The notes beneath the pieces are model-generated. The model was not told where the DNA came from. It did no database searches and was given only the letters and a program-made list of their open reading frames with translations. Shown piece by piece: positions 938-57,103 of a stretch of 64,000 nucleotides of DNA; position 1 is the first letter of the stretch; each line of letters begins with the position of its first letter. The DNA comes from Leptospira biflexa (GTDB taxonomy: Bacteria > Spirochaetota > DYNZ01), in NCBI GenBank assembly GCA_020720805.1, contig DYNZ01000004.1, positions 19,103 to 83,102 of the forward strand. The letters are read 5' to 3'. A program made the position numbers and the translations under genes.

Positions 938-2290
938 ATGAAAGGATTTAAAATCGAGAATAAGGAAATTGTTATCGCTGGTGCCTTGAGGACCCCTATT
1001 GGACAGGTAAATAAAAGCCTCTCCGGTTTCTATAGCTATCAACTGGGAAGTCAGGTTGGCGAGGCTTTACTCAAACAGTTACAAATCAGCAAAAATGAGA
1101 TTAAGGGTGTTGTTGCAGCAGAAATAGGGCAATCCTCAAAAGCGCCCAATGTCGCAAGGGTGATGTCCGTGGATATGAATTTACCTTTGCAGATTCCCGC
1201 TATAACAGTGGCTAACAACTGTGTTTCTTCGTATGAGGCAGCCGCTGAGGCAATACGCAGGATCATCTTGGGAGAAGGAGATTTACAACTTGTCATCGGG
1301 ACTGAAGCGATGAGTAAATTTCCCCTCTATCTTGATGGTGCCAGGCAGAATAGTAAATTTGCTACTCCTGATAAGATTGTAAAAAATGTAACAGAATTGG
1401 AATCATCTCCGGATGTAAAAATTGTGGATGGCATTATCGAAGGACTGACAGATCCGACTCGCAATGCAAGTATGATTGAGACTGCTGAGATTGCTGTCCA
1501 AAACTATAATTTTAACCAGGAACAGCTCGATAAAGTTGCCTATGAGAGTTATAGTAAGGCATACAAGGCGATTACCGGAGGAAAATACGATAAATATATT
1601 CATAAAATGACTATCGACGGCGAAGAGTTCTCCCAGGATGAGTACATTATGAGTAAAACCGGATTTGTGGAGAAACCAGAACGGTTTGGAAAAGCCTCAC
1701 CTGTATTTGAACATCCCACTTTGGGCGGTATGAAAGCGTTTTATGAAAAATTTGGTTCTTATATCAACAAACCCTATTCACCCGGTAGCAAAGGTGCGGT
1801 CACACTCTTCAACTCCTGCCCACAATCGGATGGTGCAGGTGCAATGATTTTTACAACAGAAGATAAGGCAAAATCACTTGGATTACCCATCCTCGCACGG
1901 GTGGTAACTTACGCTATGTATGGGGTAGATCCAGCACACATGGGTATAGGAATGGCCTACGCTGGTGCTGAAGCATTAAAAAAATCGGGGCTCCAATTAA
2001 AAGATATTGGTTTCTTTGAGATGCACGAAGCCTTTGCGGCAACGATGTTAGGCTCTGTTTATGAGATGAGTGACCAGTTAGGTATCAATATGCGCGAACG
2101 GTATGAAAAAGGTGATATCAACCGTAATGGTGGTACATTGGCTCTTGGTCATCCGCTTGGCGCAACAGGCATTCGGGTGCTGATTAACCAATTGCTAGAG
2201 TTTGATTTTGATCATGATTCTGAATTTAGCCTGGGAACGATATGTGCCGGTGGAGGTGTTGCCGGCTCTTTTATTCTGCAAAGACCTTAA
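938..2290 (+). CDS. Thiolase family protein (acetyl-CoA C-acetyltransferase-like) with an internal insertion of about 60 aa.
   Basis: N-terminal RTPIG motif, NNC active-site Cys region, HEAFA His region, C-terminal NGG.LALGHPLGATG and CAGGG motifs. At 450 aa it is longer than the typical ~390 aa. RBS GGGATGGGG lies just upstream. Confidence 0.8.
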   Translation: MKGFKIENKEIVIAGALRTPIGQVNKSLSGFYSYQLGSQVGEALLKQLQISKNEIKGVVAAEIGQSSKAPNVARVMSVDMNLPLQIPAITVANNCVSSYEAAAEAIRRIILGEGDLQLVIGTEAMSKFPLYLDGARQNSKFATPDKIVKNVTELESSPDVKIVDGIIEGLTDPTRNASMIETAEIAVQNYNFNQEQLDKVAYESYSKAYKAITGGKYDKYIHKMTIDGEEFSQDEYIMSKTGFVEKPERFGKASPVFEHPTLGGMKAFYEKFGSYINKPYSPGSKGAVTLFNSCPQSDGAGAMIFTTEDKAKSLGLPILARVVTYAMYGVDPAHMGIGMAYAGAEALKKSGLQLKDIGFFEMHEAFAATMLGSVYEMSDQLGINMRERYEKGDINRNGGTLALGHPLGATGIRVLINQLLEFDFDHDSEFSLGTICAGGGVAGSFILQRP

Positions 2291-2301
2291 TCATCTGTGT
2301 A

Positions 2302-2350
2302 AAACTGTGGTAATCATTTTTCTGAATTGGCTACCACAGTTTCGCTTTTC
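2302..2350 (+). terminator. Candidate intrinsic terminator after the thiolase gene.
   Basis: Perfect 11-bp inverted repeat aaactgtggta...taccacagttt with a 19-nt loop, followed by the T-rich run cgcttttctgattt. Confidence 0.3.
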
Positions 2351-2447
2351 TGATTTACAAAAGACTCCAATCTGGAAAGATGGAATCTTGCTTCGATGCT
2401 TTCAGATATTGATTTGAAGCAAAATTCCGAATAACAATGGATAGCAT

Positions 2448-2870
2448 ATGGCTGCAAAGAGTGATATTCCAAATAGTGTCATTGGGGAAGGCTCTGTTTT
2501 TGAGGGCAAATTCTACATCAGCGGATCTTTACGAGTCGACGGAAAGTTTGAAGGTGAGATCGAAACAGATGAAGATATGATCATTGGCGACACCGGAAAG
2601 GTAAAGACCAATATTCGAGCTAAGAGGGTGATCGTTTCAGGAACATTGATTGGCAATATTGAAGCCACAGAAGAGGTCAGATTGCTACGCAATGGGAAAG
2701 TCATGGGTAATACCACTGCTCCGATGATTCAAATTCAGGAGGGGGTGATGGCTCAGGGAGAAATAAAAATTACTGGCAATGCCGGCTTCAAGGATGATAT
2801 CAAACGAATCATTGAGCAGGATTACAGTAGTGGTCAGATTATTGATTTTGATGCGGCGAATGCCCGATAA
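2448..2870 (+). CDS. Bactofilin (DUF583 polymer-forming cytoskeletal protein), paralog 1.
   Basis: Right-handed beta-helix bactofilin repeats: VIGEGSVFEGKFYISGSLRVDGKFEGEIET...GDTGKVKTNIRAKRVIVSGTLIGNIEATEEV. Length 140 aa. Confidence 0.8.
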   Translation: MAAKSDIPNSVIGEGSVFEGKFYISGSLRVDGKFEGEIETDEDMIIGDTGKVKTNIRAKRVIVSGTLIGNIEATEEVRLLRNGKVMGNTTAPMIQIQEGVMAQGEIKITGNAGFKDDIKRIIEQDYSSGQIIDFDAANAR

Positions 2871-2972
2871 GGGCTTAGACATTTTATAAATTTTTTTATT
2901 TATTTTTGATCTTTGCGGAGACGATGATAAAAGAGATGCATCATCTCCAAAAGATACCCTTGGATTTTTAGC

Positions 2973-4259
2973 ATGATTAAAAAAAAGTATAATATTTGGG
3001 AACAATTTTTTAAGAATTTTTCTGTAACCTACATTGGCTATGGAAAGTTTTTATACTATCATCGTAATCCCCGCACAAAGAAAATTAAATATGGAAAAAT
3101 TGATTTTACCACTCCAAAAGCGAAATTGGCACTCTCCTCCTTGATTAGTCTTTCGATCGTTTCCTCTTTTCTTTTTGTGCAGTTTCGTAAAGATACGCTA
3201 ACGGCAAAACCACATAAAACGGAAAATTCTCCTAAGATATCCCATGATAAAGATTCACAAATTACCCCCTTATTATCAGCAGAGGAGCTTCACCCAGAGG
3301 AAAAAAAGACAATCACCGGACTCATTTTAGAAGAGTCGCGTAAACTTCTGGATGCCTCAAAGCCTGGGGAGGAGTCCAGGCCAGAGCCTAAGGATAAGGG
3401 CAATACTTTAGACCAGGAAAAGCTCAAATCCCTGTCAGGTAAATCTGATATTGCTACCAGTATCGACGATGAGGATACGGAAAAATTAAAACGAAGTACT
3501 TTATTATCCGATGACACTCGCTTTATTCCTGAGCAGGAAAACAAAAAGGTAAAAATTTACCAATATACTGTCAAAAAGGGCGATAGTGTTGGATCATTGG
3601 CTCGTAAGTTTGGGATTTCTGCGGATACCATCGGAGGAAGTTCCGGAAAAATCATGAATATGGATGAAATCTGGCCTGGTTTGACGCTAAGTATTCCCAG
3701 CCGCGATGGAATTCTGTACAAGATGAAAAAAGGAGAGACATTAGCTCACATCGCGAATCGTTACGGTGTAGCATTGGCAAAAATTCTTGCCGTCAACGCA
3801 TTTGATGACCCTGATAATATTCCTGTAGGCAACCTTATTTTTCTTCCTGATATCAAGCCAAGAAACCTGTTTACAGGATTTCTCTGGCCTGTTGGGGGTA
3901 GAATTACCAGTCTGTATGGTTGGCGGCGTCACCCATTTGTAAATAGTTACCATTTTCATGAAGGTCTTGACCTATCAGCTCCCTATGTAAGCGTCAGAGC
4001 AGCAAAATCTGGAAAAGTTACCTTTTCTGGTTGGATGGGATCTTATGGTATGGTTGTCATTTTATCGCATCCGAACAACTACAAGACAATGTACGCTCAT
4101 AATTCCAGACTCTATGTTCGCGTAGGACAGTATGTTCGTCAGGGGCAGGTAATTTCGCAATCCGGCAGCACTGGGCGAAGTACAGGACCACATGTGCATT
4201 TTGAGATTTGGAAAAATAATCGACCCATGAACCCACTCGCATTACTCCGTAAAAGATAG
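2973..4259 (+). CDS. LysM-domain M23 family metallo-endopeptidase (NlpD/Csd-like). It has an N-terminal TM segment and a low-complexity linker.
   Basis: Two LysM-like modules (YTVKKGDSVGSLARKFGIS and YKMKKGETLAHIANRYGVALAKILAVN). C-terminal M23 motifs HEGLDL...MYAHNS...GSTGRSTGPHVHFEI. Confidence 0.8.
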   Translation: MIKKKYNIWEQFFKNFSVTYIGYGKFLYYHRNPRTKKIKYGKIDFTTPKAKLALSSLISLSIVSSFLFVQFRKDTLTAKPHKTENSPKISHDKDSQITPLLSAEELHPEEKKTITGLILEESRKLLDASKPGEESRPEPKDKGNTLDQEKLKSLSGKSDIATSIDDEDTEKLKRSTLLSDDTRFIPEQENKKVKIYQYTVKKGDSVGSLARKFGISADTIGGSSGKIMNMDEIWPGLTLSIPSRDGILYKMKKGETLAHIANRYGVALAKILAVNAFDDPDNIPVGNLIFLPDIKPRNLFTGFLWPVGGRITSLYGWRRHPFVNSYHFHEGLDLSAPYVSVRAAKSGKVTFSGWMGSYGMVVILSHPNNYKTMYAHNSRLYVRVGQYVRQGQVISQSGSTGRSTGPHVHFEIWKNNRPMNPLALLRKR

Positions 4260-4270
4260 GAAAATTTTTT

Positions 4271-4582
4271 ATGGAGCAGTTTCCGGCAAAAACCGGCGAT
4301 TCTATCATTTCAAATCAGATCGAGATTCCGCAAGGGGAGAAAATTGCCATCACCGACCATGGATGGGAAAGCCGTGGTCTGGAATTGGTCTGTCCACAAT
4401 GTGCCGTTTCCTCCCAGGATGTACTATTGCGGCCACGCAAAAAAAGAGGAAAGGACAGAGAGGGAATTGAAAGAGAGTATATCATCGGGTATCAGCCCTT
4501 TTCGTTATGTCCTCAATGTAAAATCGAAATCTCCGGATCAGAATTTTTTTGTTTTCCTTTTCTGCTATCCGCGATCGAATAA
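4271..4582 (+). CDS. Small zinc-ribbon hypothetical protein.
   Basis: 103-aa ORF with two CPQC motifs about 40 aa apart. Weak SD (aggaaaa) upstream. Its stop lies 3 nt before the TTG start of the next gene. Confidence 0.4.
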   Translation: MEQFPAKTGDSIISNQIEIPQGEKIAITDHGWESRGLELVCPQCAVSSQDVLLRPRKKRGKDREGIEREYIIGYQPFSLCPQCKIEISGSEFFCFPFLLSAIE

Positions 4583-4585
4583 GCC

Positions 4586-5884
4586 TTGGAATTAAATCAG
4601 GAGCAAAAAAAGGTCGTCTATTCGCCGATTGGCTGGAAACGTCTGCTAGCTTGCGCCGGATCCGGAAAAACAACCGTCCTCATCCAACGGGTTTTGTACC
4701 TCATATCCCAAGGGATGAAACCCAGCCGGATATTACTTATCACATTTACCCGCAAATCTGCACGGGAGATGCGATTACGGCTGCGTAGAATGCTGCCTGA
4801 TGGTTCCGAGTATCCCTGGGCTGGTACCTTCCACTCCCTGGCATTTCAGTTATTGCGCAGTTATAACACGATAGCCGATTACTCTCTGCTAAAGGATGGG
4901 GAGGAGGAGGAACTCAAAATGAGCATCGCTTCTCTCTATCAAAATAAGTTATTGTACATCCCTTATGATCTTTTAGCGAACATTAGAAAGCAAAGCGGAC
5001 TGCCTCTTTTTGTGAAGAATATTTATGAAGATTTCTCGCAGAAATTTCATGAGACCAAACGAACGCGCAAACAGATTGGTTTCGATGATTTTTTGCCACT
5101 TCTGTTGAAAGAATGGCAAGAAAATGAAAGTTATAGAAAAGATTTTTCAAATAGATTTGATGCAATTCTAGTAGATGAGTTCCAAGATACCAATCCCGAG
5201 CAGATCGAATTTTTGCAGAAATTTTTAATGCGAAGTCACGATTTTCTTGCTGTTGGTGATGATTGGCAGGCTATATATGGATTTCGTAATGCGGATATGA
5301 CAGTGTTAACCAGGTTCGAAAAATTTTTTCCAAACAGCAAAACATTTTTTTTAACCATGAACTATCGCTCAACTCCTCAAATTATACAAACAGCGAATCG
5401 AGTTTTGGCGTTAAATCGTGAAAAGGTGAAAAAAAAGATGAAGTCTGTTCTACCTGCCGGTTCTGAGGTCCATTTTTATTTTTTTGAGAATAGGAATGAG
5501 TTGCAAAAATGGATATCGGATGCCTGGGTTATGGGAACCAAAATCAGTAAAGAAAAGAAAACAATTTTATGCAGAACAAATGTGCAGTGCAATTTTTTTC
5601 TTCCCGCAGAATCGGAGACGGTAAGTGCTATGACGATCCATCAGGCAAAAGGTTTGGAATTTGATCATGTGCTTGTGGCCGCTTTGGAAGACCATGTTTT
5701 CCCGCATAGGGATGCGGATATCGAGGAAGAACGCCGTCTGCTATTCGTGGCACTTTCCCGGGCAAAAAAAAAGCTGGAGATCGGAATTATAAAAAGCCAT
5801 TTGTCGGTAGAAAAGCAGTTTTCGCGCGAATTGGGTTACGGAATCGTTAACCCTTTTGCATACTCTGAATTTGCTGAATCATAG
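4586..5884 (+). CDS. Compact UvrD/PcrA-like superfamily-1 helicase. It is 432 aa, and the 1B/2B accessory domains appear largely absent.
   Basis: All SF1 motifs sit in compressed order: Q (LNQEQKKVV), I (AGSGKTT), Ia (TFTRKSAREM), II (VDEFQD), III (GDDWQAIYGFRNAD), IV (NYRST), V (IHQAKGLEFDHV), VI (EERRLLFVALSRAKKKL). TTG start. Confidence 0.7.
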   Translation: MELNQEQKKVVYSPIGWKRLLACAGSGKTTVLIQRVLYLISQGMKPSRILLITFTRKSAREMRLRLRRMLPDGSEYPWAGTFHSLAFQLLRSYNTIADYSLLKDGEEEELKMSIASLYQNKLLYIPYDLLANIRKQSGLPLFVKNIYEDFSQKFHETKRTRKQIGFDDFLPLLLKEWQENESYRKDFSNRFDAILVDEFQDTNPEQIEFLQKFLMRSHDFLAVGDDWQAIYGFRNADMTVLTRFEKFFPNSKTFFLTMNYRSTPQIIQTANRVLALNREKVKKKMKSVLPAGSEVHFYFFENRNELQKWISDAWVMGTKISKEKKTILCRTNVQCNFFLPAESETVSAMTIHQAKGLEFDHVLVAALEDHVFPHRDADIEEERRLLFVALSRAKKKLEIGIIKSHLSVEKQFSRELGYGIVNPFAYSEFAES

Positions 5885-7391
5885 TCTGAATCTCATCAGG
5901 ATAAATTCCCTGTTGCTGAGCCCCTTCTAATACCCGTAAAGCTTCCTGGTAATTTCCCTGGTTGGCGTACGAGACTCCGGCATATAACCAGGCATCGTGG
6001 TAGCTGGTTTTGAGGTCGATAGCTTTTTCCATCTGGGCTGCTGCCTCGTGGAGGTTACCTAAACGGTAGTTCAATAAACCAAGTTTAAAAAAGATATCAG
6101 GTTCGCCAGGAAAATGAAGAAGAACTTTTTTATAGGTCTGTAAGGCAGCTTCATTTTTCTCCAAATGGAGCAAGGTATCGCTATAAAATAATAGACTTTC
6201 TGTATCGTCTGGGTTAATGGAGATGGCTTTTTCCAGATCCTGTAAAGCTTTTGAGAAATTTTTATTTTTATACGCCTCCATACCACTATTTTTGATCGTT
6301 GCAAATTCCTCCGCACTCTGCTGCAACTGCAGTTCAGGCTCTGAGGAAAGATCTTTGTCGAGCTCTGAGGTGATATCCAGATCGTCGTTCAGGGGAAAAT
6401 TAGCCTCTTTCGTGGTGATGGCAGGTTGCATATTCGCATCCAGGTCAATTGAGTCCGCATCAATATCGAGATCAATGTCATCCTCGGTTAATTCACCGAG
6501 ATCATGGAACTCCTCTGCCTGGCCAATCGCTTCAGGATTGGCTACTTTTTTTTGCTCCGATGCAAAAACAGGGTCAGGTAGCTGCTCTCTATCATTAGAC
6601 TCCACAATTCTTTCCGAACTTTGCAGCGCTTCCAGCTCTTCCATCGCGTTTTCATAGGCATCTGCCAGGTGATCAATTTCCTCTGCTAAAATACCAAAAT
6701 CATCATTGTTATAGTAATAGGTTCTGGTGTTCCACTTGCCCATGTTAATGTCATGGAGCGTGGTAAGCAGAATTTTTACAGGAGAAACAGTGTAATGTAT
6801 AAGGATGAAGTAGAGAGCGATGGCCAGGAGAAGAAAAAGGAGAGCACCCAGGGCTATTTTTAGCCAAAAAAAAGGAGCTACCTGTGAGAAACTGCTGATA
6901 GCGTTCTGATTTTCAAAAAGGATTCCAAGGATCCAATGCTTGTCATGGCTGGCACCTGAAATCGAGAGATAAATACGGCTCGAATAGCTGGCAGTTAAAG
7001 AGCTGTAACCTTTTGCGGCAATCTCAGATTGGAGCTGCTTCCAGAATAGGGCATTTTTATCATTCTTGAAATTTTCAGGAAGAGTCATCTGGCCAGATTG
7101 GGCTGCAAGGTCACCCTTCTGGTCAAAAATGATAAAATCATAAACTCCGAGTTTTAGGAGTACCTTTTTTAACTCTTCCTGTCTATCAGGAGAAATCGCG
7201 TTATTTTTCCAAAGCCCCTCTTTTTTGAGTATTGGTCGAATTCTATCCTGAACAATGTGCGGAAGTGATTCCGAATACAGCGCAGCGTATGCCTGAAGAG
7301 AATTTTTACGAATGCTCATACCAATGAGAATAAAAGTAGTCATTAGGATTATGGCAAAAATAAGATGAAAAAGGAACAATTTCGATTTCAT
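5847..7391 (-). CDS. Membrane-anchored sensor-like protein with a C-terminal TPR array. Architecture is TM1, periplasmic-like domain, TM2, HAMP-like helix, acidic low-complexity linker, then TPR repeats.
   Basis: Two hydrophobic segments (aa ~8-27 and ~180-200). A HAMP-like segment VSPVKILLTTLHDINMGKW...GILAEEIDHLADAYENAMEEL. A D/E-rich linker. C-terminal TPR-like repeats (ALQDLEKAISINPDD..., YKKVLLHFPGEPD..., AQMEKAIDLKTSYHDAW...). Confidence 0.65.
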   Translation of the reverse strand: MKSKLFLFHLIFAIILMTTFILIGMSIRKNSLQAYAALYSESLPHIVQDRIRPILKKEGLWKNNAISPDRQEELKKVLLKLGVYDFIIFDQKGDLAAQSGQMTLPENFKNDKNALFWKQLQSEIAAKGYSSLTASYSSRIYLSISGASHDKHWILGILFENQNAISSFSQVAPFFWLKIALGALLFLLLAIALYFILIHYTVSPVKILLTTLHDINMGKWNTRTYYYNNDDFGILAEEIDHLADAYENAMEELEALQSSERIVESNDREQLPDPVFASEQKKVANPEAIGQAEEFHDLGELTEDDIDLDIDADSIDLDANMQPAITTKEANFPLNDDLDITSELDKDLSSEPELQLQQSAEEFATIKNSGMEAYKNKNFSKALQDLEKAISINPDDTESLLFYSDTLLHLEKNEAALQTYKKVLLHFPGEPDIFFKLGLLNYRLGNLHEAAAQMEKAIDLKTSYHDAWLYAGVSYANQGNYQEALRVLEGAQQQGIYPDEIQTMIQQIQSMQKG

Positions 7392-7605
7392 GCAAGTTTG
7401 TCCATCTTAAAATACTTCCAAGCGTATGCTACGCTATATAACTATCGGATTTGCGCAAGGTAAAAACAAACCGCAAATAGGAATTATGATGCAGGCTAAA
7501 TGCAAAAGTGGAGGAATAATTAAAACAAGGGAATGTTCTTTGATTGACAAATAGAGCGATTGAAAAACAATTTCCAAGTAATGAGTTCATCGTTGGAGGC
7601 GGAAA

Positions 7606-7947
7606 GTGGCTCTGGATTCAAAAAAAAAGGGAAATGTTGTTATTGTTTACCTGAAGGGCAGGCTTGACGTTCATCTATCTGCTGATGTTGAAAGTGACTT
7701 AAATGTGCTGATTGAGAAGGAAAAGGGTTCGAATTTTCTTTTAAATCTAACAGATGTGGAATATATGAGTTCCAGTGGATTGCGTATTTTTGTGGCAACT
7801 ATGAGGATTTTGAAAGAGCATGGACGGCAGTTAAAGCTTTGTTCATTGAATAGCGCTGTCAAAAAGATTTTCGAAGTTGTAGAATTGATGGATATGTTTG
7901 ATGTAGAGGAAACGGAAGAGGCTGCGCTCAAATCTTTTGGGGTTTAG
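7606..7947 (+). CDS. STAS-domain anti-sigma factor antagonist (SpoIIAA/RsbV-like).
   Basis: 113 aa. Conserved phosphorylatable region LTDVEYMSSSGLRIFV. GTG start with GGAGG 7 nt upstream. Confidence 0.75.
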   Translation: MALDSKKKGNVVIVYLKGRLDVHLSADVESDLNVLIEKEKGSNFLLNLTDVEYMSSSGLRIFVATMRILKEHGRQLKLCSLNSAVKKIFEVVELMDMFDVEETEEAALKSFGV

Positions 7948-7996: not shown

Positions 7997-8722
7997 TTAC
8001 CAGTTGTCGGATTGCCTATCGGTATACTTTGTTCTGACAATCGCTGTTACATCATCTAGATAAACATAACTCCACTGGTCATTCGTTGTAATGTTTCCTG
8101 GATTGAAAACAAAGGAGACAATTCTTAATTTGCTCTTTTGATTGAGAAAATGGTCTTGTTGTTTAACATGTGAGGGAATTTTAATCGATAATTTACGCCA
8201 GCCGCGAAAATTCAATTGACCGAATGTCAGATAATGGGTGTTATCATCGCTATCTTTTACAATAATCGATAGGCGGCCTGAAAACCCTTTTCCGTACGCC
8301 CAGAGATTCAAACCATAGCAAAATTCATCGATTATAATTGGTTTTATGGGGTAAATGGCCACAGCATCCTCTTTTTTGCCGAAAACCTTAATACCCAGAT
8401 ATTTTTTTGAATCCTTAATCGGGGCTGGATAGTCAGAACGGATTTTGATGTAGGCTTGTTTGTGGCCTTCAAAACGAAAATTTACCTGGTTTGCACCATA
8501 ATCCCCCGATTCAAAGTCCTCCAGGGGCATTTCCAGGTAAATTTTACGGTCTGCTTCCCCTTTTAGATCGAGAGGGGTAAAATTTTCCTCTTTAAATAAT
8601 ACATTTTCGTCGGTTTTTCCGGTTGAACTTTTCGTTGTTTCTGTATTCTGGCCAAATCCTGTTTCCAAAATGGAGAGGGTGAGTACCAATGCAGCGCCCA
8701 GGAAGAGAGCAGTTTTTTTCAT
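7997..8722 (-). CDS. Secreted protein with an N-terminal signal peptide. Its C-terminal region resembles spirochaetal flagellar filament outer-layer (FlaA) family proteins.
   Basis: Signal peptide MKKTALFLGAALVLTLSILETGFG. By recall, the segments GLNLWAYGKGFSGRLSIIVKDSDDNTHYLTFGQLNFRGWRKLSIKIP and KLRIVSFVFNPGN...YVYLDDVTAIV resemble the FlaA motifs LDFDGWRELVWENP and IIRFVGFQI...DFVTYFKDVKLIY. No search was run. Confidence 0.5.
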   Translation of the reverse strand: MKKTALFLGAALVLTLSILETGFGQNTETTKSSTGKTDENVLFKEENFTPLDLKGEADRKIYLEMPLEDFESGDYGANQVNFRFEGHKQAYIKIRSDYPAPIKDSKKYLGIKVFGKKEDAVAIYPIKPIIIDEFCYGLNLWAYGKGFSGRLSIIVKDSDDNTHYLTFGQLNFRGWRKLSIKIPSHVKQQDHFLNQKSKLRIVSFVFNPGNITTNDQWSYVYLDDVTAIVRTKYTDRQSDNW

Positions 8723-8836: not shown

Positions 8837-9634
8837 ATGAAATTATCAAAAAAGCGGGAAAATCGTCGGATTTTTCGCGATATTTCACCTAAACTAAATC
8901 GTTTCTCCGGGATTTATCCTGTTTCTTCCGTATTGCAGTTTTTTTTTCCCGCATTATGTCCCATTTGTCACCAAAGCCAAACCTGGGGAACGCTTGGTAT
9001 TTGCCAGAGTTGCGCTGCGGAGTTGGATCTCATTCTTCATTCGCAGGAGAAGCAGGAAAATTGTTTGCGTTGCGGCCTGCCTAGAACTGATTTGGACCAG
9101 GGCAATGGTTTTGATCAGGGGTGTTATCAATGTTCCAAGCGAAATATATACTATGATTCCTTTCATTACTTTTTTTATCATCGGCCGATCCTGAAACAGG
9201 CGATCCATGATTTGAAATTTCGCAAAAACCGTTATGTGGTAAAAATGTTGAGTCCATCTTTTTGGAAATCTGCTGTTGCGCGGTTTCAATGGGATGTGGA
9301 TTTTTTTACGACTATTCCTGTAAGTAAAAAGAGCGCAGCCATGCGAGGTGGAAATCAGACTGAGTTTCTCTTTGCCGGGTTGGAGCATTTTTTTCCTAAA
9401 GAGAGTATTTTGGAAAAACAGGAAGGACGTCATTTGCGTACCTATGGGCGAGTATCCCGTTTTTTTACTGTTTCTGAAGCATACCGTATTCAAGAAGGGA
9501 AAAATATCGTCGGAAAACGAATTCTTTTAGTAGATGACTTCAGTACCAGTGGGGCAACGATAAATTACTGTTCATGGTTATTGAAAGAGAAGCAGGCCAG
9601 TCATGTGATTGCCCTGGTTTTTATGCAGCACTAA
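8837..9634 (+). CDS. ComF family protein (phosphoribosyltransferase-domain competence protein ComFC-like) with an N-terminal Cys4 zinc finger.
   Basis: CPICHQ...CQSC zinc-finger motif. C-terminal PRTase motif ILLVDDFSTSGATI. Confidence 0.7.
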   Translation: MKLSKKRENRRIFRDISPKLNRFSGIYPVSSVLQFFFPALCPICHQSQTWGTLGICQSCAAELDLILHSQEKQENCLRCGLPRTDLDQGNGFDQGCYQCSKRNIYYDSFHYFFYHRPILKQAIHDLKFRKNRYVVKMLSPSFWKSAVARFQWDVDFFTTIPVSKKSAAMRGGNQTEFLFAGLEHFFPKESILEKQEGRHLRTYGRVSRFFTVSEAYRIQEGKNIVGKRILLVDDFSTSGATINYCSWLLKEKQASHVIALVFMQH

Positions 9635-11275: not shown

Positions 11276-11497
11276 ATGATATCAGAGCAAAAACAGAAAA
11301 TGTTAGATTTGTATAATCAGGGCATGAATCATTACAAGGAAAGAAATTGGTCTAAGGCCAAGGACTTTTTTTCTCAGGCGCTTACGGTAGTTCCGAATGA
11401 CGGCCCAAGCAAATTGTATGTTTATAGATGTGAACAGTATGAAAAAACATCTCCGCCAGCGGATTGGAATGGTGTTTTTATTATGACTACGAAATAG
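11276..11497 (+). CDS. Small TPR-like hypothetical protein.
   Basis: 73-aa ORF with one TPR-like helix pair (YNQGMNHYKERNWSKAKDFFSQALTVVPND). It lies between the polyprenyl synthase and bactofilin 2. Coding status is uncertain. Confidence 0.35.
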   Translation: MISEQKQKMLDLYNQGMNHYKERNWSKAKDFFSQALTVVPNDGPSKLYVYRCEQYEKTSPPADWNGVFIMTTK

Positions 11498-11508
11498 GAG
11501 AGATTGCG

Positions 11509-11892
11509 ATGGGTAAAAAATTAAGAGCTGATCTGGCAGAAGTATTAATGGATCATGGCGGAAGCATCGCAACCATTTTAGGAGAGAAAACCGAATTTGA
11601 AGGTGTTATGGAATTTGAAAATTCCATCCAGATTGATGGGATTTTTAAAGGGGAGATCAAAACACCTGGGCTGGTTGTGATTAATGATGGTGCGTTGATT
11701 AAGGCCAATATCGATGCATCGATCGTCATTCTCGCAGGTGAGGTGGAGGGAAATATCCGGGCAACGGATAAGGTGATTATCCTCTCGGGCGGTAAATTAA
11801 AAGGAAATATCAAAACGGCAAAATTGAAGATATCTGATGGGGTGGTCTTTGATGGTAATTGCGAGATGATTAAATGGGAAAAAAGCGCATAA
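11509..11892 (+). CDS. Bactofilin, paralog 2.
   Basis: Bactofilin repeats (GEKTEFEGVMEFENSIQIDGIFKGEI...NIDASIVILAGEVEGNIRATDKVIILSGGKLKGNI). ATG at 11509 is preferred over the upstream in-frame 11464 start because an AGGAGAG RBS lies 7 nt upstream. Confidence 0.8.
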   Translation: MGKKLRADLAEVLMDHGGSIATILGEKTEFEGVMEFENSIQIDGIFKGEIKTPGLVVINDGALIKANIDASIVILAGEVEGNIRATDKVIILSGGKLKGNIKTAKLKISDGVVFDGNCEMIKWEKSA

Positions 11893-55075: not shown

Positions 55076-57103
55076 GTGTATTTTTTAACGAATAGGTTGC
55101 TGATGAAAGTAAGGAATCAATCACTTTTCACCGGAATGGGGCAGTTTCTGTTAATTCTGTTGGTATGGATCATTGCGACACCCGTGTCCGCAGGGTTTTT
55201 AGAGCTGGATCAGAAAAAATCAGGTGAAATGAAGGATAGTTCAAAGCAAGATCGTAACCTCGATCCGCTTGATTCAGGGGATTATACCCCTTCTCTGTTT
55301 CAAGGGGATAATTTTCCTGAGGATTTAGCCCGGAATATCCGCGCTGCTTCGACCAGTGGAACCTCAGTGCGCATCTCCTGGGAATTTAAATATCCGGTTG
55401 GCAAAAGGCATTACACACTTTTTCGTCACACCGAGCCCATCGACTCTCTTGCGAAACTTGAAAAATCGGAAGTTATCGGTACATTTCCTGCGGATGAAGT
55501 AAAAATAGATGACCAAGGATTGCCGAAAGGGCTCTATTTTTATGCGGTTGTTGAAAAAGAGAGATTGATTCAGAAAAAAGTTGATTTTTTCCCGGGTCAG
55601 AATTTTACTCAGGATCCTGTTGCGCTAAGCGGCGAAGAGGCGGTACAGAAGAATAATATTGCCATAATTGAAAAACTGCTGGTAGAATTTGTCAATCCGG
55701 CCACAAAAAATGTGGGCTCTTTGAGCTGGATCTGGCGTGGGTCTTCTGAAGTTAATTTGTTGATTTATCGTGCTCAAGAGCCAATTGATTCTCAGGAAAA
55801 GCTGAAAAAGGCCGAGTTGCTTGTTGAGATTCCAGCAGAATTGCAGAAATTTTTAGATTACACCCTTTATACTGGGAAGCCAAATTATTACGCTTTGGTT
55901 GCGCGCAGCGAAAGCGATAAAATGCAAACAAAACAGGATCAACCTGTATTGCTAATTGCTGATCAAAATTATTCTACCAGAGCGCTGCGCACTGACTCTT
56001 TGCCGGAAATGCTGCTGCTGAATTTTGATGCAAAAATGGTTAAAACCGATGAGCAAAATCAATGTCAGGCGCAGCTATCGTGGCGTTATCCAAAGGAGAT
56101 GCTCTCTCCGAAGCAATGGGAGGTGCGTATTTACCGCTCCATGAAAACCATCTCATCGGAAGCGGACTTGCAAGCAGATATGCTGGTTGTTGAGATGAAT
56201 GGAGCATTTCAAAAATATACAGATATGCCATTGGATTGCAGCAAACCCTATTACTATGCCTTGATTCTTGGGACCGGGAAACCGCTGACCTGGTTTACAA
56301 AGATTGACGCGAAGCGAAATTATCTTCTTGTCTCAAAGAGCAGCAAACAACAAGCTCCCGTAATCAGCCAGGATCCACAGGATCGGACGAAAAAGCCGTC
56401 AGGTTCTATTGCGTCCTATACCCAGATATTCTCCTCATTGAGTGCTAAGCCTGATGCAAGGGGAGTGCAAATCCTGTGGCGCTATCAAAAGCAAATCCCC
56501 GAAAGATATCAAAAGCAATGGATCTATATCATTCGTACTGATGAGCCGCCAATCGATTTCGAGACTGTGAGAAATCATGGTGTGATTGTTCATGAATTTT
56601 TAATGAGCAGTGGATTAGAAGCTTTTATAGACGAAACACCCATTGAACGTAAGGTTTATTATTATGTCTTATTGATTGGGCCAGGAAAATCCAGGGTGAC
56701 ACCGCTGGAATATCGGACTGGGTATAATGTTTATGCGCAAGGAGTGATTCCCTTTTTGGAAAAATCCAACCACAATGCGAATGGTTCCTTGCAAAAGAGA
56801 GACCCCAAAAAAAAGAGGATGTTTACGCCAGCCGGGCAGCTTGATATGGTGGAGTTAAATAATATTCTAAATGATTATTACTACCAAGGACAGTATTCCC
56901 AGAGTTACCGTAAACTGGAGATTTTTATAAACAATGCAAATCGTATTGTGAAAAGTAAAGCCTTGTTATATCAGGGTCGATCATTGTACAAGATGGAACG
57001 ATACAGGCAAGCTTTGCCTTATTTCCTGGACAGGGATGTTCAGGAATTATACCAAAAAGAGGCGCTTTTCTGGCAACAGGCTATTTATAAGAAACTGAGA
57101 TAA
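55076..57103 (+). CDS. Secreted or periplasmic protein with four FN3-like repeats and a C-terminal TPR-like tail.
   Basis: Signal peptide (the likely true start is MKVRNQ at 55103, cleaved after VSA). Four ~100-aa modules share a ..[LI]SW...P.....Y.[IV].R...PI.S...L.......YYYA[LV][LIV] pattern. Each module opens with VRISWEFKY, LSWIWRG, AQLSWRYPK or VQILWRYQK. Confidence 0.6.
   Translation: MYFLTNRLLMKVRNQSLFTGMGQFLLILLVWIIATPVSAGFLELDQKKSGEMKDSSKQDRNLDPLDSGDYTPSLFQGDNFPEDLARNIRAASTSGTSVRISWEFKYPVGKRHYTLFRHTEPIDSLAKLEKSEVIGTFPADEVKIDDQGLPKGLYFYAVVEKERLIQKKVDFFPGQNFTQDPVALSGEEAVQKNNIAIIEKLLVEFVNPATKNVGSLSWIWRGSSEVNLLIYRAQEPIDSQEKLKKAELLVEIPAELQKFLDYTLYTGKPNYYALVARSESDKMQTKQDQPVLLIADQNYSTRALRTDSLPEMLLLNFDAKMVKTDEQNQCQAQLSWRYPKEMLSPKQWEVRIYRSMKTISSEADLQADMLVVEMNGAFQKYTDMPLDCSKPYYYALILGTGKPLTWFTKIDAKRNYLLVSKSSKQQAPVISQDPQDRTKKPSGSIASYTQIFSSLSAKPDARGVQILWRYQKQIPERYQKQWIYIIRTDEPPIDFETVRNHGVIVHEFLMSSGLEAFIDETPIERKVYYYVLLIGPGKSRVTPLEYRTGYNVYAQGVIPFLEKSNHNANGSLQKRDPKKKRMFTPAGQLDMVELNNILNDYYYQGQYSQSYRKLEIFINNANRIVKSKALLYQGRSLYKMERYRQALPYFLDRDVQELYQKEALFWQQAIYKKLR

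Follow-up and report, generated by a model that had tools for sequence, protein, structure and literature searches.

Helicases of superfamily 1A (SF1A) act as monomers as 3'-5' translocases on single-stranded DNA (ssDNA), and their unwinding is curbed by the 2B domain, a curb that is relieved by dimerisation, by partner proteins or by deletion of 2B (PMC13238157, PMC13646824). In Rep and in mycobacterial UvrD1, 2B is an autoinhibitory, partner-docking domain (PMC13238157, PMC13646824). When residues 404-585 of UvrD1 are replaced by SGSG (UvrD1-delta2B), ATPase activity is kept and helicase activity is gained; however, the function in nucleotide excision repair (NER) is lost in vivo and growth is slowed, as it likewise is by Rep-delta2B (PMC13646824). 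Natural loss of 2B is already on record, because DarH of the DarHTG defence system, which resembles UvrD-family helicases, is described without this domain (PMC13069673). Mycobacterial UvrD2 carries a tetracysteine module that is critical for unwinding and dispensable for ATPase activity (PMC3424565). Here we analyse a 64,000-nucleotide stretch of Leptospira biflexa DNA (contig DYNZ01000004.1, assembly GCA_020720805.1; the whole stretch is called the window), which encodes a compact UvrD-like helicase of 432 amino acids (aa) directly downstream of the gene for a small zinc-ribbon protein (ZnR). This helicase has lost 2B, retains 1B and, by sequence comparison, belongs to a conserved family of similarly short proteins. 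Coordinates are collected in Table 1.

Domain architecture

Loss of 2B accounts for most of the reduction in size; the terminal extensions are missing as well, and 1B is kept in a slightly trimmed form. Segment lengths were read from the window protein and 119 homologs aligned with MAFFT. At the 2B position the window protein has 12 aa, compared with a median of 16 (12-27) in 28 short homologs and of 190 (143-243) in 91 full-length ones. The original prediction had taken both 1B and 2B to be nearly absent, which is right for 2B but wrong for 1B: the latter has 96 aa against a median of 118 (95-125) in the full-length homologs, roughly 20 aa less. The Pfam model UvrD-helicase (PF00580), which covers 1A and 1B, is matched end to end (E 2.1e-54, profile positions 1-271 of 271), and the AlphaFold2 (AF2) model shows a confident helical 1B, with helices at residues 106-121, 128-132, 141-160, 166-179 and 181-188 and a predicted local distance difference test (pLDDT) score mostly of 89-98. 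The 1A and 2A pieces are equally long in the short and full-length classes. The N-terminal lead comprises 2 aa in the window protein and 21 aa in the 91 full-length homologs, and the tail past residue 420 comprises 12 aa against a full-length median of 27 and a maximum of 114. The protein stops after 2A, and no Pfam HRDC match was found in it.

Alignment to the structure database leads to the same picture. Residues 2-311 correspond to PcrA 11-337 and residues 341-399 to PcrA 554-617, so that residues 311-341 span PcrA 337-554 and about 215 PcrA residues have no counterpart. The AF2 model, built on a 29-sequence alignment, has an overall pLDDT of 88.5 and a predicted template modelling score of 0.86; pLDDT is 85-91 through the 2B junction, and confidence drops in the last 8-10 residues. 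The top Foldseek matches are PcrA, UvrD and Rep, with template modelling scores of about 0.8 normalised to the query (TMq) and about 0.56 normalised to the target (TMt), a combination that fits the presence of about two thirds of a canonical enzyme.

Family assignment and gene start

Sequence matches place the product in the UvrD family of SF1A at the superfamily level, in agreement with the compact UvrD-like helicase originally proposed. Besides PF00580, Pfam UvrD_C (PF13361) is matched in two pieces (E 8.7e-29), and in a phmmer search against PDB sequences PcrA comes first (1pjr, E 1e-49), with UvrD and Rep close behind. The equivalog cut-offs of NCBIfam are not reached for PcrA (245 bits, cut-off 911.2), UvrD (230.5 bits, cut-off 1144.45) or Rep (208.3 bits, cut-off 951.45). 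The closest family is of the PcrA/UvrD/Rep type by both phmmer and Foldseek. HelD-type enzymes are far weaker matches: HelD_BACSU scores 57.3 against 419 bits and HelR 36.1 against 750 bits, only the C-terminal motor half is aligned, and TMq to HelD/HelR is 0.48-0.61.

NCBI and Logan gene calls give the identical 432-aa product. The JGI call (P0001) begins at an internal ATG (M62) and yields 371 aa, losing the Q motif and Walker A (window 4586-4771). Orthologs, which mostly start with ATG, begin at the equivalent M-x-L-N-x-E-Q position in the alignment, and the 432-aa TTG start is accepted because the NCBI and Logan calls and the ortholog N-termini agree. The point matters for annotation: the 371-aa call deletes the ATP-binding loop, and the short helicases are otherwise annotated merely as a generic "ATP-dependent helicase", as in one member of a neighbouring short-helicase cluster ("ATP-dependent helicase [Spirochaetota bacterium]").

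Catalytic motifs

Motifs Q, I, Ia, II, III, IV, V and VI are all present, as had been predicted, and are supported both by the alignment to PcrA and by 29 short homologs (alignment A1, from which residue conservation was read). The catalytic residues are invariant in all 29. A substitution of the Walker A lysine or of the acidic pair of motif II, looked for as a sign of inactivation, was not found: these residues are intact and invariant in the 29 proteins. G25, G27, K28 and T29 of motif I are each at least 90% conserved. Invariant residues of motif III are V223, G224, D225, D226, Q228, I230, Y231, F233 and R234, and those of motifs V and VI are T350, H352, K355, G356, L357, E358, F359, E381, E382, R384 and R392. 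All residues aligned to the ssDNA-binding motifs Ia, III and V of PcrA are kept.

The aromatic residue in motif III was considered as a signature of the short proteins, since GDD[WYF]Q occurs in 28 of the 29 short proteins and in 2 of the 91 long top whole-protein matches. It was rejected: a metagenome scan with VGDDWQ[SA]I returned mostly full-length proteins with 2B. About 60 of the 80 loci recovered (L093-L172) encode such full-length UvrD-like helicases, some of which have long N-terminal extensions and reach 880-1040 aa (L116, L124, L142, L147, L171). Being widespread in full-length, 2B-containing helicases, the aromatic is not specific to the short clade.

Homologs and phylogeny

The closest relatives (P0002-P0005) are 41-54% identical and equally short (429-459 aa). 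The orthologs could have been full-length, leaving the window copy as a deletion remnant, and their lengths do not support this. About two dozen further proteins of 391-493 aa are 30-37% identical, at 88-97% query coverage. In a neighbour-joining (NJ) tree of 120 sequences, 28 of the 29 short proteins form one pure clade; with 63 independently found metagenome open reading frames (ORFs) added, 32 of 33 do so. Both trees were computed on about 420 core columns, with the 2B region excluded by the gap filter. The exception, P0083, falls among full-length proteins and, by this position, looks like a separate loss of 2B. Mean pairwise identity inside the short clade is 37%, and this pattern suggests a single old loss of 2B followed by diversification. 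On these comparisons the helicase is a member of a conserved family and not a deletion remnant.

A scan of genome collections for orthologs gave no cultured close relative among the matches listed, the best of which were 33-35% identical and mostly full-length. A tblastn search of 72,556 plasmids and 50,697 phage records gave matches of at most 36% identity and no short or close relatives. The plasmid and phage matches listed all align in two pieces spanning about 1.8-1.9 kb, which points to full-length proteins containing 2B.

The zinc-ribbon partner

The protein with two CPQC motifs that had been noticed immediately upstream of the helicase was confirmed by direct reading of the sequence. 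It has no Pfam, NCBIfam or PADLOC match. Counterparts at three orthologous loci (L001, L003, L004) are 22-34% identical to it, and the residues invariant among the four orthologs are C41, C44, C80, C83, C94, Y74 and P96. A word-indexed profile search of 5.8 billion proteins recovered the four input proteins and nothing else. When 1.84 billion representatives were searched exhaustively with the profile, five real members were found, including a new one (P0134, E 1.6e-12), and no fusion of the ZnR to a helicase or to any other protein; two marginal repeat proteins from this search are regarded as chance matches. P0134 lies on an NCBI contig of a metagenome-assembled genome (L092, GCA_964501965.1) in the order bactofilin, LysM/M23, ZnR, helicase, and the helicase fragment there is 42% identical to the window helicase.

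Conservation of the pairing was borne out: the ZnR gene is directly upstream of the helicase ortholog at all five loci with upstream DNA (window, L001, L003, L004 and L092; the contig of L005 begins at the helicase and is outside this count). From ZnR stop to helicase start, the gaps are 3, 4, 24, -4 and -10 nt. These tight gaps, together with the lack of a clear Shine-Dalgarno sequence ahead of the helicase start, suggest that the two genes are translationally coupled. In every pair the ZnR is acidic (isoelectric point 4.8-5.8) and the helicase basic (9.2-9.7). The loop between the knuckles varies in length and charge across the orthologs, an argument against a conserved loop for DNA binding. 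The ZnR structure predicted by AF2 comprises an all-beta core (pLDDT 73-88) and a disordered N-terminus. No CxxC or zinc ribbon is found in the small ORFs that precede the distant short helicases of L174 and L086.

In the window only, the ZnR and helicase ORFs are in the same frame, separated by TAA and one codon (gcc) before the TTG. At the orthologous loci the frames differ or the two ORFs share 4 or 10 nt, so that these are two genes and not a read-through fusion.

Genomic setting

The 64-kb window belongs to the core chromosome, with genes for IF-2, PNPase, FtsK, AlaRS, ProRS, RseP and RNase J and also for electron-transfer flavoprotein (ETF), thiolase, bactofilin, STAS, polyprenyl synthase and a FlaA-like sheath protein. 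The FlaA domain, together with weak matches to NCBIfam models of Leptospira type, suggests a spirochaete. The window shares with the contigs of three of P0002-P0005 the gene order ETF-beta, ETF-alpha, thiolase, bactofilin, LysM/M23 peptidase, small Cys protein, helicase, convergent tetratricopeptide repeat (TPR) protein, STAS, FlaA-like and ComF-like. The LysM/M23 gene ends 11 nt upstream of the ZnR gene and occupies this place also in L001, L003 and L092; it is a probable operon neighbour of the ZnR gene, its functional membership being uncertain. Across 170 loci, adjacency of M23, TPR or bactofilin genes is confined to the window's own lineage and L090.

Table 1. Features of the helicase locus, in window coordinates
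Feature	Residues	Window position	Strand	Basis
LysM/M23 peptidase		2973..4259	+	Pfam Peptidase_M23 E 1e-33, LysM E 5e-18
ZnR, acidic 4-Cys protein, orphan	103 aa	4271..4582	+	ORF directly upstream of helicase
First zinc knuckle, C41-P-Q-C44	41-44	4391..4402	+	tgt cca caa tgt read directly
Second zinc knuckle, C80-P-Q-C83	80-83	4508..4519	+	tgt cct caa tgt read directly
SF1A UvrD/PcrA/Rep-like helicase, TTG start	432 aa	4586..5884	+	Pfam, NCBIfam, PADLOC, PDB, AF2, Foldseek
Motif Q, ELNQEQ				Aligned to PcrA/UvrD
Motif I / Walker A, ACAGSGKT, K28	22-29	4649..4672	+	Aligned to PcrA AGAGSGKT
Motif Ia, TFTRKSAREM				Aligned to PcrA/UvrD
1B domain, all-helical	about 93-188	4862..5149	+	AF2 and segment census
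Motif II, DEFQD	197-201	5174..5188	+	D197, E198, Q200, D201 invariant (alignment A1)
Motif III, VGDDWQAIYGFRN (given also as VGDDWQAIYGFR), aromatic at fourth position	223-235	5252..5290	+	
Motif IV, NYRS, R261				Aligned to PcrA/UvrD
Junction where 2B would insert, 12 residues joining the 2A halves	336-347	5591..5626	+	
Motifs V and VI, TIHQAKGLEF ... EEERRLLFVALSRAK	348-394	5627..5767	+	Aligned to PcrA 554-617

The 3' end of the helicase gene overlaps the convergent TPR gene (5847-7391, -) by 38 nt (5847-5884), and no terminator-like site was detected between them. Scanning 2200-7700 for promoters and terminators yielded no more sites than expected from shuffled sequence, so that these scans are uninformative. 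The TPR gene encodes a membrane protein of 514 aa in the window and 501 aa in L001, with weak matches to HAMP/sensor-kinase-like proteins in its N-terminal part. Its counterparts in L003 (7319-9730), L004 (1788-3995) and L005 (3382-5520) have 712-803 aa and include a SpoIIE (PP2C phosphatase) domain; by sequence, the TPR protein and the adjacent STAS protein (7606-7947) look like a partner-switching module whose phosphatase domain was lost in the window lineage. The ComF-like protein (8837-9634, +) combines a double zinc ribbon (DZR_2) with a phosphoribosyltransferase domain, and its gene adjoins that of the FlaA-like protein (7997-8722, -); both are kept in the syntenic loci.

The pair of bactofilin and LysM/M23 peptidase (window 2448-4259) is kept in L001, L003 and L092 and resembles the cell-shape modules known from helical bacteria. 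A bactofilin of L001 (PF04519, 13112-13329) is syntenic with window 11464-11892. Among the distant loci, L090 (5001-8569) has the gene for the short helicase P0007 (34% identity) directly ahead of LysM-LysM-M23 peptidase and TPR genes of the same strand. The kinds of neighbour are those of the window in another order, which may reflect either ancestral synteny or a functional link. QueH (epoxyqueuosine reductase) recurs upstream of two other distant short helicases, its gene preceded by an unannotated one of about 112-117 aa (L088, 3950-6341, P0075; L174, 3601-6278, P0056). Elsewhere in the window, a 675-aa ORF (55076-57103, +) has no Pfam match at E <= 1e-5.

Proposed function and alternatives

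The best explanation, to which we assign a probability of roughly 60%, is that the locus encodes a natural 2B-less, de-repressed monomeric SF1A motor that works with the ZnR as a partner in trans in chromosome maintenance. Domain content, motif integrity, family conservation, ZnR pairing and synteny are established here by observation. That the helicase is an active as well as a conserved 2B-less SF1A motor is highly probable, its activity being judged from the intact motifs. Gene order, coupling and charge make the ZnR a candidate physical partner of the helicase, with about even odds. The chances are similarly balanced that the protein is a de-repressed monomeric helicase, a view taken because engineered 2B deletions turn the Rep and UvrD1 monomers into helicases.

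In mechanistic terms, the enzyme would be an ATP-driven 3'-5' ssDNA motor of an old, diversified clade that lost 2B and kept 1A, 1B and 2A. Without 2B, it would be a constitutively de-repressed monomeric translocase or helicase, unwinding DNA or stripping proteins from it, and would lie beyond the usual controls exerted through 2B and the C-terminal tail (dimerisation, MutL, UvrB/UvrC, RNA polymerase). The acidic ZnR, translated just before the helicase, would bind the basic motor and restrain or target it in trans, and the module would serve chromosomal DNA maintenance, not phage defence.

Several points weigh against this explanation. Unrestrained 2B-less helicases slowed the growth of E. 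coli and M. smegmatis, so that the natural ones may be tuned differently, for instance as translocases or protein-displacers instead of helicases. As to a co-resident full-length UvrD/PcrA, the genome was examined over 64 kb, and the trees are simple distance NJ trees without support values. The AF2 model of the ZnR is of modest confidence (pLDDT 64 overall), and its fold search gave no significant match (all E >= 0.2). Other sub-clades of short helicases lack the ZnR, so that the 2B-less architecture can function without it.

A more far-reaching version is doubtful. In it, the ZnR and the motor would make up a two-component helicase in which a separate ZnR subunit has taken over in trans the autoinhibition and targeting that 2B provides in cis, and the wider clade would consist of natural delta-2B monomeric helicases with a distinct housekeeping role. 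As an enzyme class these helicases are unremarkable, and the proposed mechanism is drawn from gene order and analogy. However, the case for autoinhibition by 2B has been built largely on engineered deletions that activate the monomer but harm the cell, and a conserved, diversified chromosomal clade without 2B provides natural test material for it. How such enzymes are restrained, what they are used for and whether a small ZnR in trans can replace 2B-based control are the questions posed. A natural delta-2B clade with a possible regulator in trans would thus be a useful handle on a long-running helicase question.

It is unlikely that the protein is a streamlined substitute for UvrD/PcrA, taking over NER, mismatch repair or replication-conflict work from the full-length enzyme. 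Such a role would fit the core-chromosome position with its conserved synteny, the fact that PcrA, UvrD and Rep match best in both sequence and fold, and the location of one distant short homolog near recN-like and dnaA genes. However, the scores are far under the NCBIfam equivalog cut-offs for these enzymes, and the short proteins cluster with one another in a separate clade, apart from the sampled full-length proteins. Moreover, 2B is required for NER in vivo in M. smegmatis (PMC13646824), and it is the canonical 2B and C-terminal tail that carry the contacts to MutL, UvrB and RNA polymerase (PMC13646824, PMC13238157).

A tie between the module and the co-oriented envelope and shape genes (bactofilin, LysM/M23, TPR), for example through chromosome processing coupled to division or septation, is quite improbable. 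The 11-nt spacing between the M23 and ZnR genes, the order bactofilin, M23, ZnR, helicase in four loci and the LysM-LysM-M23 and TPR genes that directly follow the distant P0007 in L090 are consistent with it, but order within one lineage may be inherited synteny. Five other distant contexts (L086, L088, L089, L173 in GCA_009885955.1, L174) have no M23 or TPR neighbour; an M23-like match is found in 3 of the 80 metagenome loci and in none of them adjoins a short form. We know of no mechanism that joins SF1A helicases to peptidoglycan hydrolases, which also counts against such a tie.

A role in anti-phage defence or as an accessory helicase (GajB-like, DarH-like or DRT-associated), with the ZnR as sensor or effector, had been hinted at in the original prediction and is very improbable. 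It would draw on strong PADLOC scores, the best match being RTasHel (DRT-associated helicase, 6.5e-64), with GajB models at 1.7e-54 and weaker, in 2-3 pieces, ranked below it. These matches are to profiles of 540-675 positions aligned in 2-3 pieces, and the scores are consistent with similarity in the UvrD motor core in general; in a phmmer comparison with solved GajB chains, similarity is confined to aa 20-66, the Walker A region. DarH, a natural 2B-less UvrD-like helicase, does belong to a defence system (PMC13069673), and small partner proteins are common in defence operons. Yet no OLD/TOPRIM, reverse transcriptase (RT), DarT/DarG or nuclease gene adjoins the helicase according to the ORF list, Pfam and PADLOC, in line with the earlier remark that this is not a recognisable Gabija. 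None of its neighbours (LysM/M23, ZnR, TPR membrane protein) has a PADLOC match, and no DarT ADP-ribosyltransferase or DarG-type antitoxin occurs in the window neighbourhood or the orthologous loci. Unlike a defence island, the locus keeps its housekeeping and cell-envelope synteny across orthologs of 41-54% identity, and short or close relatives are absent from the plasmids and phages searched.

A pseudogene or deletion remnant of a full-length UvrD, for which the length (about 250 aa below canonical enzymes), the unusual TTG start without an obvious Shine-Dalgarno sequence and the 371-aa JGI call might speak, is effectively refuted by the invariance of all catalytic residues, the same architecture in the orthologs and more than 30 homologs at 30-54% identity, the confident AF2 model through the junction, the monophyly of the short clade and the alignment of the N-terminus with ATG-started orthologs.

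Comparison with known systems

The helicase fails the defining features of canonical PcrA/UvrD/Rep and of Gabija, DarHTG, DRT, HelD/HelR and UvrD2. No description of a diversified chromosomal clade of 2B-less helicases, or of an orphan ZnR partner, was found in the searchable literature, whose coverage is incomplete. HelD and HelR have an N-terminal secondary-channel arm and clamp-opening domains, whereas the window helicase aligns to their motor half only. The DRT-associated helicase has an RT adjacent to it, and no RT gene is near the window helicase. GajB is likewise a compact UvrD-like helicase, of about 490-500 aa, whose PADLOC models match the window protein; however, GajB is adjoined by GajA (OLD ATPase and TOPRIM), which is absent here, where the setting is chromosomal housekeeping.

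UvrD2 shares with the window system an SF1A UvrD-like motor and a CxxC...CxxC module and is a partial precedent for a Cys4 element that couples the motor to unwinding. In UvrD2 the module is fused in cis at the C-terminal side, has the form CxxC-(14)-CxxC and is followed by HRDC, in a family restricted to Actinomycetales. By contrast, the Cys4 element of the window is encoded by a separate upstream gene, has the form CxxC-(35)-CxxC within an acidic all-beta fold and is not accompanied by HRDC; Pfam, profile and fold searches detected no homology between the ZnR and the UvrD2 module. DarH, compared here by its description only, is also a UvrD-like helicase without 2B, but it shares an operon with a toxin, DarT, and a DarG-like antitoxin, whereas the window helicase has housekeeping and envelope neighbours and an orphan ZnR.

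In sequence and in fold the window helicase comes closest to canonical PcrA, UvrD and Rep, with which it shares all the motifs. Absent here are their 2B domain, the GIG-type duplex contact, 2B-2B dimerisation and the docking surface for MutL, PriC or RepD, as well as the C-terminal Tudor/RNA polymerase-binding (UvrB-binding) tail; the window helicase scores 4-5 fold under the canonical NCBIfam equivalog cut-offs and belongs to a separate clade. Closest in design are the engineered Rep-delta2B of E. coli and UvrD1-delta2B of M. smegmatis, which have the same 1A, 1B and 2A domains, the same intact motifs and a very short link in place of 2B (SGSG in UvrD1-delta2B, 12 residues in the window helicase). 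These are laboratory constructs that keep the N- and C-terminal extensions of their parents and slow growth, whereas the window helicase belongs to a natural, conserved and diversified family and has a trimmed 1B, no C-terminal tail and a lineage-specific ZnR.

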